Source of the DNA: Escherichia phage vB_EcoM_P54
DNA length: 64,000 nt
Sequence record: PV390658.1
Reading direction: 5' to 3' (one strand)
This document shows positions 2,656-53,168 of this stretch, piece by piece (positions within the stretch are counted from its first letter, which is position 1; each line of letters begins with the position of its first letter). The translations under genes were made by a program, and so were the position numbers. The notes under the pieces are model-generated. The model did no database searches. It was not told where the DNA came from and saw only the letters and a program-made list of their open reading frames with translations.

Positions 2656-2694
2656 GTAAAAGGTATCTGGGGCTATTTAGCCCCGTTGCGTCGA

Positions 2695-5783: not shown

Positions 5784-6188
5784 TTAAAGTTCTGCGTAGA
5801 TTGCATCACAGACATCACGGAAATCATGATTTGTTAAGTTACGTTGTAACCAAGTGGCAAAGAAATCAGCGATTGCAAAATTAGCGTCATACTCGACGGA
5901 TAGCCACACTTTAACAGCAAATCGGAACATCTTTAAATCCAGCTCTTTATTCATTACCTTTGATTTGCCTAACATGTCGGCCATCTCATGTTGTGCACCG
6001 TCTAGCGTGATACCGGCTGCAACGTCAGCCAATGAGTTTTTTACGCTTTCAACGTCTAAGATAACACTTTGAATCTTCCCAATAATGTTTTGCAGTGTTT
6101 CATCCGGTGCTGCTGATGTGATAACATTAATCCGGTTAACGGTCAAACGTGCTTTTAAGATAGATAACTCACGATTATTAATAGCCAT
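5784..6188 (-). CDS. hypothetical early protein (134 aa)
   Basis: ATG at 6188 abutting a type B cassette. Confidence 0.6.
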   Translation of the reverse strand: MAINNRELSILKARLTVNRINVITSAAPDETLQNIIGKIQSVILDVESVKNSLADVAAGITLDGAQHEMADMLGKSKVMNKELDLKMFRFAVKVWLSVEYDANFAIADFFATWLQRNLTNHDFRDVCDAIYAEL

Positions 6189-6268
6189 TTTTGAATCTCC
6201 AATTTAGGATTTAGTGGTAAAGCTCTTTATCTGGGGCTTACTGTACAGACTTATAAGCCCCTTGTAAA
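6189..6268 (-). promoter_or_regulatory. type B cassette
   Basis: TTTACA (6263-6268), 17-nt spacer, TACAGT in the loop of the GGGGCTTA/TAAGCCCC palindrome. Confidence 0.45.
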
Positions 6269-6273
6269 GTACT

Positions 6274-6546
6274 TTATGCTAAATGCAGCTTTTTGCCTTT
6301 TACTATGATGTAACTTGATGCGCTATTGCCGCATACATCTTGATAAATTCTACGCAAACGGCCTTCGTAGTATACTTTCCAGCTAGTTGGAATCTTTTTC
6401 CCGTATCCGGTAGCAGTTTTTTGGAATCCTGCAAGTTGCCAATCCAAAATGTGCTGTTCAGCTTGTAAATCCTCGAAGTGCATTACACCGTTCACATAGT
6501 GGCGTAGGGTTACGTTTAAGGTGCGACCGTTGTTAGTAGTGTACAT
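6274..6546 (-). CDS. hypothetical early protein (about 90 aa)
   Basis: ORF-track start 6588 is a read-through of cassette sequence (KVLKLGDSKM); ATG at 6546 with AGGAG SD. Confidence 0.5.
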   Translation of the reverse strand: MYTTNNGRTLNVTLRHYVNGVMHFEDLQAEQHILDWQLAGFQKTATGYGKKIPTSWKVYYEGRLRRIYQDVCGNSASSYIIVKGKKLHLA

Positions 6547-9671: not shown

Positions 9672-10457
9672 TTAGTTCTTTGCGTCTAAGAAGGTTACTT
9701 CCGGTGAAGAGAAAATCTCCTCAACATCCTCATCAGTTCTTGCATAGATATATGTATCTGCATCGCTGCCAAATGTTACTGCAATTCTGTGATTGCTCTT
9801 CGACAGGTGGGTAACTAGAGCGTTACTTAGAGACATCTTTTCAACCGGAGGGTTACTTTGATGTATCTTGCCTTTTCTTCGTCTGAAGAGGGTAACTACA
9901 TCATTAGTGAACACTACTACACCAGCAAAGTATTCTGGTTCACAGTAGTTCTTCCAACCTGAGCGTAACTTGTGGTACATCTCTCCTTCATAGACATACA
10001 GATACACATCTACACTCTTCATCACCTGATTAATGATGACTGTGACGGCTTGAGAGTCTAGTCCACCGATACCTGCACCAATCATAGGTAACCCAACTTT
10101 CTTCAACTGATTGACTTCACAGTATCTGTTAAGCTGTTTCAAAGATGACTCTAAAGCACTGTATCGGGCATCTTTACCAGTCTTAAGCTGAGTGTAAAGG
10201 TTAGCTATACGGCCTTGTTCTAAACGTGCTACAGAGAAATTGCCTAGTAAATTTTCACAGGGTTTGTGACCTATACCACCTGCATACAGATAGACTTCTG
10301 TATCAGTCTCATATGCTTTTGGGTAAAGTTTAGAAATCTTGTCAGCGATACCTGCACCCATTAAATTCATACAGTTGCAACCGTGACCAATAATATCAAA
10401 CTTACCTTTATCAAATGCGGAGAAGATATCCCCATTGATGATTTTTACAATACCCAT
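9672..10457 (-). CDS. macrodomain-like protein (261 aa), putative ADP-ribose binding or hydrolase
   Basis: N-terminal VKIINGDIF...FDIIGHGCNCMNLMGAGIADKI and GLPMIGAGIGGLD resemble macrodomain motifs GDIT...DAIVNAAN...GGGV and ISTGIYG; extra C-terminal region of about 110 aa. Confidence 0.5.
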   Translation of the reverse strand: MGIVKIINGDIFSAFDKGKFDIIGHGCNCMNLMGAGIADKISKLYPKAYETDTEVYLYAGGIGHKPCENLLGNFSVARLEQGRIANLYTQLKTGKDARYSALESSLKQLNRYCEVNQLKKVGLPMIGAGIGGLDSQAVTVIINQVMKSVDVYLYVYEGEMYHKLRSGWKNYCEPEYFAGVVVFTNDVVTLFRRRKGKIHQSNPPVEKMSLSNALVTHLSKSNHRIAVTFGSDADTYIYARTDEDVEEIFSSPEVTFLDAKN

Positions 10458-15260: not shown

Positions 15261-15290
15261 ATTCTAAGGGGCTTCAAAGCCCCTTGTCAA
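15261..15290 (-). promoter_or_regulatory. candidate promoter for rIIB
   Basis: TTGACA (15285-15290), 18-nt spacer that is the palindrome AGGGGCTTTGAAGCCCCT, TAGAAT (15261-15266). Confidence 0.45.
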
Positions 15291-18184: not shown

Positions 18185-18201
18185 AATCTTCTCCAGAAAT
18201 T

Positions 18202-18222
18202 AAAAAGGCTCCCGTAGGAGCC
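18202..18222 (-). terminator. rho-independent terminator after the NAMPT-like gene
   Basis: A-run then GGCTCC-CGTA-GGAGCC hairpin. Confidence 0.6.
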
Positions 18223-18237
18223 TCTTATCATATACTT

Positions 18238-20019
18238 TTAAAGCTGCTTGTCAATATTATTTCGAATATCACCAAGAGTTGTGTAACCGAACTGCTCAGA
18301 GTCACTAAAGACTAAACGTAAAGCACAAGCTGGATGTTCAAGCACATCTGCAAAGCTCTGGAATCCATAGCCATCTACAGCTTTCAGCTTATCGCCATCC
18401 CACATAGGTGCTACACCACCAAAAGCAGACTTCTTAACACCGCTATCTGTTTTAGGGTCTTTTGCAAGCATAATCTCTTTACCACCAATGCTTGCAAGAG
18501 TTGCTTTGACAGCAAATGCAAAGGTGTCACGAGTCATGTACTGGTAAGTGTAAGAACCTACACCAAACACTACGTTAGAGCTTGCAAAACCCATTTCATA
18601 CAAACGCTTCAGGATTTCGTTTGCACGTTCCAACGTGATAGAGTCACCATAGATAAGGCCAATGTGCTCATCCAGTACCTTAAAGCCTTTAGAGTTGATA
18701 GTCCCTCCAAAGATGTTATACAGGGTCTTAATAGCCCCATCAATCTCTGCTACAGGACGTGTTACAACGTTTGCAGAGCCGTTGATGTAGGCATCTTTCA
18801 GAAGCACTGTATCAGCTACTTCAAAGTCTTCTCTGTCAACCACCATTTCATAGCCTTCTGTACGTAACCACCCAGCCATAATATAGTGAATGTCTTCAAG
18901 ATTCATGTTCAGAACAGCATTCAACATTGTGTCGCTGGCTTCCAGCTTGCTTAGGTGTTCGTAATAAGCCTTTTTAGCACACTCTAAGTGGATTGCTTTA
19001 TAGCCTGTGACAATATGTACAGGGTCTCCAGAGTCAGGACGAATTACCAGTTTACCATCACGTTCCATAATCTCTTTACGGAGTTCTGGTAATATAACTG
19101 ATACAGTTCTCCAGAAGTTATAAGTATCTGAAACAACACTTGCAATACCAGTTGGGTAAGTTTCTGTTAAGAAACGACGGAAGGTTTGTAACTCACCTTT
19201 AAAACGTCTTTCATCTTCAATTAACTCATTACCACCTTCCCAAGCAATGTTTGCACACATTACAGAGTGTTCAGTGGCTGGCACAGAACTACCAATATCA
19301 GAGATTGGGTAGGACTGTCCATAGATGCGTTTAGCTGTATACACAGCAGGGAAGCTGTCAGTTCCTTTAAAGCTGGTTAAGTGACCTACAGCGTTAAATG
19401 CGTCATCAGTAAAGCCAGACATACCACGCATAGCAAAGTCATGGCACTGATAAGGTAAATGCAAGTCGTTGTCACAAGTAAGGTCAGCCCACTTCTTACA
19501 GATACGTTTGTAGTGCAATGCAATAGTTGCAATGGTACAAGCCTTCCAAATCTCAGCAGAGAAAGCATCTTCCAGATACCCCGCTACCCAATGGAAACCT
19601 GAAACAGTGTTCTGGAAGACAATCATTGGCACACGCATAGGGACAACTGTACCTTCTTCTACAGCGTAGACTTCAACTGGTAGATAACCTAAGTCGTGGA
19701 GTGCTTCCCAATGTTCTCGACCAATAGCATCTTTACCCAGAACGCCGTTCATGACTTCTAAGATTTCATCAATTGCTTCTTTTTTGTCACGTTCGAAGAA
19801 GGTGGCGTTCCAGTGGTCTATCAGGTAATCTTTAACAAAACGTTGAATACCAAAAGCAACTACACCGTCAATTGCTAAAGGGCTGTTAAACCATTTATCA
19901 CTACGTGGTGTCAGGTTGAACATTAGGTACTCTGTTGCACTAGGATACTGATAAATATGGCCAGATTTGTAAGCATCCGCGTTTAAACCTGCTGGTACTG
20001 CATAAAGTGATTTAGTCAT
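18238..20019 (-). CDS. nicotinamide phosphoribosyltransferase family protein (about 593 aa)
   Basis: N-terminal NADAYKSGHIYQYP resembles the NAMPT DSYK-x-THY motif; ORF-track start 20070 is TTG, start moved to ATG at 20019. Confidence 0.7.
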   Translation of the reverse strand: MTKSLYAVPAGLNADAYKSGHIYQYPSATEYLMFNLTPRSDKWFNSPLAIDGVVAFGIQRFVKDYLIDHWNATFFERDKKEAIDEILEVMNGVLGKDAIGREHWEALHDLGYLPVEVYAVEEGTVVPMRVPMIVFQNTVSGFHWVAGYLEDAFSAEIWKACTIATIALHYKRICKKWADLTCDNDLHLPYQCHDFAMRGMSGFTDDAFNAVGHLTSFKGTDSFPAVYTAKRIYGQSYPISDIGSSVPATEHSVMCANIAWEGGNELIEDERRFKGELQTFRRFLTETYPTGIASVVSDTYNFWRTVSVILPELRKEIMERDGKLVIRPDSGDPVHIVTGYKAIHLECAKKAYYEHLSKLEASDTMLNAVLNMNLEDIHYIMAGWLRTEGYEMVVDREDFEVADTVLLKDAYINGSANVVTRPVAEIDGAIKTLYNIFGGTINSKGFKVLDEHIGLIYGDSITLERANEILKRLYEMGFASSNVVFGVGSYTYQYMTRDTFAFAVKATLASIGGKEIMLAKDPKTDSGVKKSAFGGVAPMWDGDKLKAVDGYGFQSFADVLEHPACALRLVFSDSEQFGYTTLGDIRNNIDKQL

Positions 20020-20040
20020 CTTTTTAATCTCTCTCAAAAT

Positions 20041-20056
20041 GGGGCTTTGAAGCCCC
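20041..20056 (-). promoter_or_regulatory. intergenic hairpin between the Prs-like and NAMPT-like genes
   Basis: GGGGCTTTGAAGCCCC palindrome preceded by TTTATA and followed by ATTTTGAGAGAG SD region. Confidence 0.45.
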
Positions 20057-20066
20057 CTATAAAGTT

Positions 20067-20948
20067 TCAATCAATGGTAATTACAGTAACTTGGGCATAA
20101 TGTGTTAAGCCACGGTCTTTAGCTTCCCCTAAAGAGTTTGTAGTGTAGATATGGTCAATACCATTGTCAAGTAAGTTTTCAACACCTTTAGAGAAAATGC
20201 CATGAGTTACATAGAGTTCCACACGTTTTGCACCTGCTTCACGAAGATGTTTAGCTGCTTCTATGAAGGTTCGACCTCCATCACAGATGTCGTCCAGAAT
20301 CATGACAGTTTTATCTGTCAAATCAACATCATCGAGGATTCGCATACCGGTAATCTCACCAGTCTTAAGGTTACGCACTTTAGACATTGTGATGTATGGT
20401 TTATCCACCTCTTTAGCGGTCTCTGCAATCTTCTTAGCAGCACCTGCATCTGGGGCTACTAAGTAATCAACCAGTGGGTCATTCGCATAGTGGACTGCAA
20501 TCTCCTTTTGGGGGATACTCTGGAAGCAGTTAAACAGGTTATCTGGTACATAACTGTGAGAGTCAACTGCACAGACTGCATCGAAACCCATTGCATTAAC
20601 CTGTTGTGCAAACACTTTCAAAGCTGCTGCATCACCTTTAAACATGTGACGGTCGTAACGTGCATTTGGCAAATAGTAAAAGATGACAGTCTTCATAGCA
20701 AACTTATGGGGCACTAAGTTGTCAACCGCCTCTTTAGCAAGTGCCACAGCAAACAATGTATCTTTATCATAACCTTTTACAATCATAATCACATTGTTGA
20801 TAGATGATGCTGCATAAGCAGTGAAGTCAACAAACTCTGGTGAAAAGTGTCCACCAATCTCACCAGAAGGGAATTGGATGATGTTAAACTCTTCTTCATG
20901 AGTCCCTTTAGTTGGTGAATGAACTGTAACACGGATAGATGTTTTCAT
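20067..20948 (-). CDS. ribose-phosphate pyrophosphokinase (Prs) family protein (about 293 aa)
   Basis: Type I PRTase PRPP-binding loop VMILDDICDGGRT; start moved from TTG at 20963 to ATG at 20948. Confidence 0.7.
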   Translation of the reverse strand: MKTSIRVTVHSPTKGTHEEEFNIIQFPSGEIGGHFSPEFVDFTAYAASSINNVIMIVKGYDKDTLFAVALAKEAVDNLVPHKFAMKTVIFYYLPNARYDRHMFKGDAAALKVFAQQVNAMGFDAVCAVDSHSYVPDNLFNCFQSIPQKEIAVHYANDPLVDYLVAPDAGAAKKIAETAKEVDKPYITMSKVRNLKTGEITGMRILDDVDLTDKTVMILDDICDGGRTFIEAAKHLREAGAKRVELYVTHGIFSKGVENLLDNGIDHIYTTNSLGEAKDRGLTHYAQVTVITID

Positions 20949-20959
20949 AGTTTTCTCTC

Positions 20960-21238
20960 TCAATCAAAAGTTACGTTTGTTACTGCCATTGCAGATTTGC
21001 ATTTTGCAGGGTCTACAACGTGATAAAGTACACTACAGTTACCTGTGCTGTCTGGTACAGGTTTAACCCATTGTTGCTTGACAGTTGGTTCTCCTAAATC
21101 TTTGTAAGAACCATCTGTAAAATTGTTTACCATCTCAAGTGCAATTGGTTCTGGAACATGACCTCGTATCATGTACATTTCACAACCATTACCACCCTCA
21201 CTGACTAGTGGTAAAATCTCCCACTTCTCTTTAGCCAT
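20960..21238 (-). CDS. hypothetical protein (about 92 aa)
   Basis: ORF-track 20960..21265 starts with TTG; ATG at 21238; no clear SD, start uncertain. Confidence 0.35.
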   Translation of the reverse strand: MAKEKWEILPLVSEGGNGCEMYMIRGHVPEPIALEMVNNFTDGSYKDLGEPTVKQQWVKPVPDSTGNCSVLYHVVDPAKCKSAMAVTNVTFD

Positions 21239-21746
21239 TGTAAGTTGCCCTATAAACTGTCTCAAACTTCAACAGGAGAGATATTGCCAAATCTGTATAG
21301 TTGTTGTCAAGCACATCTGGCATATTATTTTTGATATATTTCTCTTGCTCTTCATAGGTCATCTTAGGGATGCTTAGGAGTCTATCTCCTTGCTTCTGGT
21401 TATCAGCTTTAGTTTGGATAAACCAGTTCGCACAGTGATGTTCACCACCTTTTGTAACAGGCTTGTGGTGGCCTAATGTGAATGTTTGCTTACCTGTATA
21501 CCTGCAAAGATTGTTCAGTGTTGCAATAGTGTTCTTCACGACACACCATTCATACAGGTTATCTATTGTGTAGTGTGGGTAATAACGGACAAGTGCTCTT
21601 TCACGGAAGTTATCACGATTCCAGAGAATCATGTGATTTGAGTTAGAAGGGTCGTATTGGTGGGAGTCAATGAACTCTTGACGTTCCTCAAAGCTCAGTC
21701 TTAGGACAGACATTGCAGCAGAACGTTTCAGATTTGACAGATACAT
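21231..21746 (-). CDS. HNH endonuclease-like protein (171 aa)
   Basis: GHHKPVTKGGEHHCANWFIQTKADNQKQ matches the HNH motif pattern; GGAG SD. Confidence 0.55.
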   Translation of the reverse strand: MYLSNLKRSAAMSVLRLSFEERQEFIDSHQYDPSNSNHMILWNRDNFRERALVRYYPHYTIDNLYEWCVVKNTIATLNNLCRYTGKQTFTLGHHKPVTKGGEHHCANWFIQTKADNQKQGDRLLSIPKMTYEEQEKYIKNNMPDVLDNNYTDLAISLLLKFETVYRATYNG

Positions 21747-21797
21747 ATTATCTCCAAAATAAAAAGGGAACCTTTACAGTCCCCTTATAGTATCTGT

Positions 21798-53145: not shown

Positions 53146-53168
53146 TTAAAAGGGGCTATAAAGCCCCT
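53146..53168 (-). terminator. hairpin between the two tail fiber genes
   Basis: Minus strand TTTACA then GGGGCTTTATAGCCCC then UUUU. Confidence 0.45.

Follow-up and report, generated by a model that had tools for sequence, protein, structure and literature searches.

A probable core NARP1 operon for NAD+ reconstitution in the Felix O1-like Escherichia phage vB_EcoM_P54

Two adjacent and co-oriented minus-strand genes, adps and namat, lie within positions 18238..20948 of a 64,000-nucleotide (nt) stretch of DNA from Escherichia phage vB_EcoM_P54 (sequence record PV390658.1), the whole of which is termed the window. Here, we conclude with high confidence that the pair is the core two-gene NARP1 operon of a Felix O1-like phage, which rebuilds nicotinamide adenine dinucleotide (NAD+) from ADP-ribose (ADPR) and nicotinamide. 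The assignment is based on family membership, on orthology and synteny with genes 79-80 of phage Bas63, and on the presence of catalytic and substrate-selectivity residues. The chemistry and the anti-defence phenotype are carried over from the literature on orthologues and homologues, by analogy with which they would apply to this phage, and we infer the same activity for the window's own allele pair. The finding is correct yet not new, because the genes of its relatives have already been tabulated as Adps and Namat: the pair is an orthologue of the founding example of NARP1, with near-identical relatives catalogued.

In the proposed pathway, a host NADase defence of the SIR2, TIR or SEFIR type would split NAD+ into ADPR and nicotinamide. 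Adps would move the beta,gamma-pyrophosphate of ATP onto the 1'' position of ADPR, forming ADPR pyrophosphate (ADPR-PP), and Namat would then swap the pyrophosphate for nicotinamide, giving NAD+ directly, without a nicotinamide mononucleotide (NMN) intermediate or an adenylyltransferase. Both genes would be carried on one minus-strand transcript ending at the terminator at 18226..18203.

NARP1 in Felix O1-like phages

NARP1 was discovered in Bas63 (JohannRWettstein, MZ501086.1) as genes 79-80 (Osterman et al., bioRxiv 10.1101/2024.02.11.579819). In that study, deletion of the two genes resulted in ~20-fold fewer plaques on SIR2-HerA cells, where NAD+ was not restored; ADPR-PP was seen solely in defended cells infected with wild-type phage; and host pncC and nadR were dispensable for rescue by Bas63. 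The substrates offered to the purified SPbetaL1 enzymes were ADPR or ribose-5-phosphate for Adps, and ADPR-PP or phosphoribosyl pyrophosphate (PRPP) for Namat; the study concluded that NAD+ is rebuilt from ADPR and nicotinamide. The supplementary tables of the same paper list OL825705 (vB_EcoM_DE7), MW423797 (Seyj1-1) and Felix O1 as carrying Adps with a Namat neighbour ('Yes') and an "Adps-associated" Namat; these three are the nearest relatives of the window pair.

The gene order around the pair (NrdG, small open reading frames (ORFs), adps and namat, two small ORFs, rIIA, rIIB) is kept in Bas63 (Felixounavirus), Sf14 (Mooglevirus) and PC79-13 (Suspvirus), and a looser version is found in Erwinia phage Omen (Kolesnikvirus). 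By megablast, 18000..21300 matches 258 phage records, the best of them 96% identical and almost all of them Felix O1-type phages of Escherichia, Salmonella, Shigella or Citrobacter; on these matches, the source of the window is assigned to Felixounavirus. Conservation of the pair extends to four Ounavirinae genera and to over 200 genomes.

A first-pass annotation of this DNA had described two adjacent, co-oriented genes of the Prs and NAMPT families, and had proposed that they form a Felix O1-type pair acting as NARP1. Both ORFs have the limits it assigned (ATG at 20948 and TGA stop at 20069..20067 for adps; ATG at 20019 and stop at 18240..18238 for namat), and the motifs VMILDDICDGGRT, at Adps residue 215, and NADAYKSGHIYQYP, at Namat residue 13, are present. 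Its spacer of 48 base pairs measures 47 nt (20066..20020). The NARP1 reading is borne out at the level of sequence by the syntenic Bas63 orthologue and the tabulated relatives.

Adps

Profile searches place both proteins in the expected families far beyond chance. Adps matches Pfam Pribosyltran (1.1e-11) and Pribosyl_synth (2.5e-9) and phrog_619 (1e-97), and is 80% identical to Bas63_0079 with no gaps, both proteins being 293 amino acids (aa) long. On the broad NCBIfam model TIGR01251 it scores 120 bits (cut-off 113), but it reaches no NCBIfam Prs equivalog cut-off (296-536), the best score being 105 bits against 296. The Adps of SPbetaL1 resembles it in the same comparison (106 bits), while the scores of E. 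coli Prs are 423 bits (TIGR01251) and 533 bits (Prs subfamily model NF002320). In direct comparison, the window protein aligns to assayed Adps with 97-119 bits, and to E. coli Prs with 64 bits. Identity and synteny with Bas63, the relatives in the published Adps table, these bit scores and the sub-cut-off equivalog matches together place this Prs-family member in the phage Adps clade, and argue against a true PRPP synthetase.

The alignment to characterized enzymes that had been proposed at first pass recovers the catalytic residues of Bas63, SPbetaL1 and ICP1 in Adps, and the clamp residues in Namat. The catalytic lysine of Adps, K190, aligns with SPbetaL1 K162 and ICP1 K185, mutation of either of which abolishes ADPR-PP formation (bioRxiv 10.1101/2024.02.11.579819; PMC13586617). 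Likewise, R97, H131, D167, D219, D220 and D223 are the counterparts of ICP1 R87, H121, D161, D212, D213 and D216. The pyrophosphate (PP) loop, which in ICP1 Adps comprises C215-S220 (PMC13586617), falls in a region that reads DDICDGGRT in the window, DDICDGAAS in ICP1 and DDMIDTGGT in E. coli Prs. Set against E. coli Prs, all four aligned Adps proteins have a C-terminal gap of ~20 columns in common; according to the ICP1 structure paper, Adps homologues lost the C-terminal alpha11-alpha12 regulatory/filament module of PRPP synthetases (PRPS; PMC13586617).

A search of solved structures with Adps returns PRPP synthetases only, the best being 4twb (8.5e-18); the ICP1 Adps structures are not among these matches, and the comparison was made with the ICP1 gene itself. 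Adps was also considered as a PsyrT/ShosT defence component and rejected: in PADLOC, the phosphoribosyltransferase core alone gives weak matches (E ~1e-6), a generic similarity.

Namat

Namat matches Pfam NAPRTase (1.3e-34) and also NAMPT_N, phrog_448 (8e-202) and NCBIfam NF006629 (1.8e-140), and is 97% identical to Bas63_0080 with no gaps (both 593 aa). Its best solved-structure match by sequence is SPbetaL1 Namat (9w5w/9w5x; 1.7e-128). The AlphaFold2 (AF2) model has a pLDDT of 92.9, and its best fold match is again the crystal structures of SPbetaL1 Namat, with a TM-score of 0.95 on the target. Core residues D15, Y17, F195, R198, D221, H251, R327 and D329 are all present, corresponding in SPbetaL1 to D13, Y15, F189, R192, D215, the catalytic His, R306 and D308.

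The first-pass annotation held that sequence cannot settle whether the substrates are ADPR or ribose-5-phosphate/PRPP. This view is overtaken, because two structural papers of 2026 (PMC12774641, PMC13586617) define the determinants, and the Namat-specific adenine clamp discriminates between them. The clamp has two parts, the second being a loop that provides the third stacking residue (PMC12774641). The clamp helix of the window Namat reads GSYTYQYMTRD. In Nampt enzymes the same position holds GGGLLQQLDRD (KVP40-like phage VH7D), GGALLQKVDRD (Xcc, Xanthomonas) and GAQTYQRNTRD (Haemophilus ducreyi HdNadV, the closest solved Nampt), and all three enzymes are without the aromatic clamp residues of Namat. 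In the loop, the adenine-stacking residue is either an Arg at position 3 or the residue that follows a Lys or Tyr; where the third residue is Lys, the fourth stacks on adenine, with Bas63 cited as the example (PMC12774641). The loop of the window (S40-D41-K42-W43) is of this Lys-Trp type.

Two insertions, at aa ~258-272 (~15 aa) and aa 340-427, make Ounavirinae Namat proteins ~100 aa longer than the crystallized SPbetaL1 enzyme. The longer, of ~88 aa, is a separate alpha/beta domain that is confidently predicted in the AF2 model, and it has no structural relative in PDB or BFVD. The Namat structure paper (PMC12774641) does not mention this insert; the domain is undescribed.

As a side observation, chromosomal homologues of ~496 aa in enterobacteria (Klebsiella, Cronobacter, Kosakonia, Erwinia and others), annotated as nicotinate phosphoribosyltransferase, carry GS[YF]TYQYNTRD. 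Because this is a Namat-type clamp motif, these proteins are likely to be bacterial Namat rather than Nampt.

Table 1. Features of the adps-namat region and related elements in the window (positions on the 64,000-nt stretch).
Feature	Position	Strand	Basis or remarks
adps: ADP-ribose diphosphokinase (Prs-family), 293 aa	20067..20948	-	ORF, start codon, Bas63_0079 match, phrog_619
Adps catalytic lysine K190	20379..20381	-	aligns with SPbetaL1 K162, ICP1 K185
Adps PP-loop region DDICDGGRT (D219-T227)	20268..20294	-	aligns with ICP1 DDICDGAAS
namat: nicotinamide ADP-ribose transferase (NAMPT-family), 593 aa	18238..20019	-	Bas63_0080 match, 9w5w/9w5x match
Namat selectivity-clamp loop RSDKWFNS (S40-D41-K42-W43)	19882..19905	-	identical to Bas63
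Namat selectivity-clamp helix motif GSYTYQYMTRD (aa 488-498)	18526..18558	-	
Namat inserted alpha/beta domain, ~88 aa (aa 340-427)	18739..19002	-	not in SPbetaL1, ICP1 or enterobacterial homologues
Spacer stem-loop GGGGCU-UCAA-AGCCCC, followed by AUUUU and the namat ribosome-binding site	20041..20056	-	
Hairpin copies	2669..2684, 15268..15283 (between rIIA and rIIB), 20041..20056, 53152..53167		spacers between co-oriented minus-strand genes
Intrinsic terminator after namat, GAGGCUCC-UACG-GGAGCCUUUUU	18203..18226	-	terminator scan
Two conserved upstream ORFs, function unassigned (171 aa, phrog_3500; 92 aa, phrog_4726)	20960..21746	-	
Macro-domain protein, 261 aa	9672..10457	-	Pfam PF01661, 2e-7

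Comparison with known NARP systems

Bas63 NARP1 resembles the window pair in genus, gene order, neighbours from NrdG to rIIA, protein lengths, clamp residues, spacer hairpin and terminator. It differs in the N-terminal half of Adps, where the window has another allele (64% identity over aa 1-90, 76% over aa 91-170), and in the inserted domain of Namat, where identity is 86%, compared with 98% elsewhere in the protein. Bas63_0081, a 114-aa ORF with no Pfam hit directly after the Bas63 namat terminator (6009..6353 of the Bas63 stretch compared), is absent from the window (about 18185..18237); the absence is a clean 346-nt difference just past the terminator.

The SPbetaL1 system has the same two-gene order, catalytic Lys and Arg, and Namat fold, and its clamp helix motif is GSFTYQYNTRD. 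Identity in multiple alignment is only 31% for Adps and 48% for Namat; moreover, the SPbetaL1 genes abut with no spacer, its clamp loop uses Arg40 where the window has Lys-Trp, and its Namat is without both insertions. The Adps of Vibrio phage ICP1 (PMC13586617) belongs to the same PRPS-like fold family, with K185, R87, H121, D161, D212, D213 and D216 all matched and DDICDG in common; however, identity is ~39% and confined to the C-terminal 190 aa, and the window alignment shows no conservation of F18, F92 or the lid residue F223.

NARP2 (KVP40-type Nampt and Nmnat) and HdNadV (9ke8) share with the window Namat the NAMPT superfamily and its catalytic core. Unlike Namat, these Nampts have no aromatic clamp residues (GGGLLQ.., GAQTYQR..), and the clamp of the window reads GSYTYQY, not the GGGLLQQ of VH7D. 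NARP2 also needs an adenylyltransferase. Probing by tblastn for an NMN adenylyltransferase, with NadR and NadD of E. coli as queries, yielded no match below E = 0.4 in either the window or the complete Bas63 genome, at BLAST-level sensitivity. For NARP3 (PnuC-like and NadR-like proteins), no NadR-like match was found in either sequence by tblastn, PnuC not being searched for. NARP2 and NARP3 are thus disfavoured, since the adenylyltransferase that they require was not found by tblastn. The genes beside the VH7D Nampt, checked as a possible source of NatV, have no Pfam hit.

Known extensions of NARP1 add a Macro-domain phosphatase (Adpp) or a RyR-domain glycosidase (RyDEP) within the operon. 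A scan of seven flanking ORFs, five upstream and two downstream, reveals no Macro or RyR domain, and the operon therefore has the core two-gene form. On every sequence-level feature that could be judged, the pair agrees with membership of NARP1.

Hairpins, terminators and the transcription unit

The adps-namat spacer contains the hairpin noted at first pass, GGGGCTTTGAAGCCCC on the plus strand, which is GGGGCTTCAAAGCCCC on the coding strand. It forms a stable six-pair stem (fold z = -2.3) that is invariant across four Ounavirinae genera, while the loop and flanks vary. That the hairpin exists is thus upheld, but it does not stand as a feature of the pathway, since three other intergenic copies occur: the GGGGCN6GCCCC pattern (GGGGCT-N4-AGCCCC) is present in the window in four near-identical copies, where none is expected by chance. 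A role as an operon-specific attenuator was likewise rejected as the leading explanation; the short U-tract varies between phages (AUUUU, ACUAUU, ACUUU), no terminator is called, and there are the three other sites. The hairpin is a generic intergenic element of the phage's polycistronic transcripts, separate from the NAD+ pathway, and may act as a weak terminator or as an RNA-stabilizing hairpin. In some relatives, the adps-namat spacer is occupied by HNH homing endonucleases.

By comparison, the terminator after namat is strong, and it is invariant in all four phages compared (window, Bas63, Sf14, PC79-13). The terminator scan finds a terminator-like site at 21786..21764, ahead of the two upstream ORFs, and none between those ORFs and adps. 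Given these two boundaries, the transcription unit probably extends from 21746 to 18203 and includes the two upstream ORFs, the order of which is the same in Bas63, Sf14, PC79-13 and Omen.

A promoter-like site is also present at 18227..18254 on the minus strand (TTGACA, 16 nt, TATGAT; 11/12 consensus matches), where it overlaps the last codons of namat. The site abuts the terminator hairpin, such that a transcript from it would start inside the hairpin; both elements are conserved in Bas63, Sf14 and PC79-13.

Uneven divergence within the operon

Divergence from Bas63 is concentrated in two places. At the nucleotide level, identity falls to 59-78% over the first ~500 nt of adps and to 81-88% over the region of the Namat insertion, compared with 88-97% for most of the remaining two-gene stretch. 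In protein terms, identity is 70% over Adps aa 1-170 (20440..20948, minus strand) and 94% over aa 171-293. The Namat insert and the Adps N-terminal domain are therefore the most divergent parts of the operon. Among phage records, Namat is >95% identical in 205 genomes, whereas Adps is split into several identity bands. The local divergence, together with these Adps bands set against a uniform Namat, indicates that N-terminal alleles of Adps have been exchanged within the operon. Of the Adps alleles, the one tested in Bas63 is the less common.

Evidence against and alternative explanations

Several observations weigh against the NARP1 assignment. The in vitro biochemistry comes from the SPbetaL1, ICP1, DyoEdafos and Gary enzymes and a Paenibacillus homologue (31-48% identical), none of which is of the Felixounavirus type, and both Ounavirinae insertions in Namat are absent from the crystallized enzyme. 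Between the window Adps and the allele tested in Bas63 there are 58 differences, which cluster in the N-terminal domain. The adenine contacts F18 and F92 of ICP1 align with H17 and M102 here, although the N-terminal alignment is uncertain (~30% identity) and SPbetaL1 is gapped at these positions; ICP1-type aromatic contacts are probably not universal among Adps. Finally, Namat retains appreciable PRPP-to-NMN activity in vitro (PMC12774641).

The alternative that survives best adds a third gene to the pathway. In NARP1-AP, found in Vibrio phage Gary and relatives (bioRxiv 10.64898/2026.01.28.702374), the genes are ordered Adps-Adpp-Namat, and the core enzymes are those of the window. A dispersed form of this system would have the Macro-domain protein at 9672..10457 dephosphorylate ADPR-1''-phosphate from aRES-type defences, thereby feeding ADPR to Adps and Namat. 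The protein matches phrog_335 'phosphatase' (2.6e-112), a family that also holds a Macro gene of Vibrio phage AG74 (27% identity, E 2e-14), which there separates adps from namat; AG74 shares this three-gene layout with Gary, a phage tested by experiment. In sequence, the window protein weakly resembles Poa1p (E 0.012-0.02) and OARD1 (E 2e-5), which points in the same direction, as does conservation of the gene in Felix O1-like phages and in Bas63, where it is 96.6% identical to Bas63_0095 'putative phosphatase'. However, the gene lies 7.8 kilobases outside the operon instead of between adps and namat, and NARP1-AP calls for a Macro gene within two genes. The family is also very broad (2854 phage records match, T4-like phages included), so that membership implies no link to NARP1. 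The C-terminal half of the protein is an extension of ~100 aa with no known domain, and its phosphatase role is putative. We therefore regard a dispersed NARP1-AP as unlikely, if worth keeping in mind.

A broader version of this scheme is somewhat less likely still. Felixounaviruses would have an extended NARP1 with dispersed genes, in which the Macro protein supplies ADPR from ADPR-1''-phosphate or another modified ADPR, and the Namat insert and the Adps N-terminal domain might serve as arms-race surfaces, for instance towards host inhibitors, or in the pairing of the two enzymes. If this were true, surveys that count Macro genes only within two genes of the operon would miss the dispersed pathway.

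Classical salvage, in which a true PRPP synthetase and a true Nampt make NMN and the host NadR or PncC route completes NAD+, is very improbable. It is the reading given by Pfam, PHROG and NCBIfam names and by nearly all GenBank annotations, and SPbetaL1 Namat does convert PRPP to NMN, roughly half as fast as human Nampt (PMC12774641). Against this, Bas63 overcomes SIR2-HerA in a host without pncC and nadR, with ADPR-PP made in vivo (bioRxiv 10.1101/2024.02.11.579819), and both ADPR-PP and the formation of NAD+ from ADPR, ATP and nicotinamide have already been reported for purified homologues. In the window, the adenine clamp is the Namat-specific one and not the Nampt version, Adps scores far below all Prs equivalog cut-offs, and the tblastn searches described above, within their sensitivity, yield no phage NMN adenylyltransferase. 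Since SPbetaL1 Namat retains PRPP-dependent NMN synthesis in vitro, salvage may by analogy persist as a side activity of a NARP1 pair.

That the pair is a decaying or inactive remnant can be dismissed: the divergent N-terminal half of Adps is all that suggests it, while both ORFs are intact and equal in length to those of Bas63, all mapped catalytic residues are retained, the Namat model is highly confident, and the pair is conserved in four genera and more than 200 genomes.

Implications

In most records, the pair is still mis-annotated as PRPP synthetase and nicotinamide phosphoribosyltransferase. The value added by the NARP1 assignment is one of annotation, giving the names adps and namat instead of prs and nadV, and it introduces no new principle. 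Three small leads come from the domain inserted in Namat, the existence of two Adps alleles and the Macro gene far from the operon. NARP1 allows a phage to reverse the NAD+ depletion caused by SIR2, TIR and SEFIR defences and their relatives; the presence of the pathway therefore predicts host range on defended strains, which is of use in selecting Felix O1-like phages for therapy or typing.

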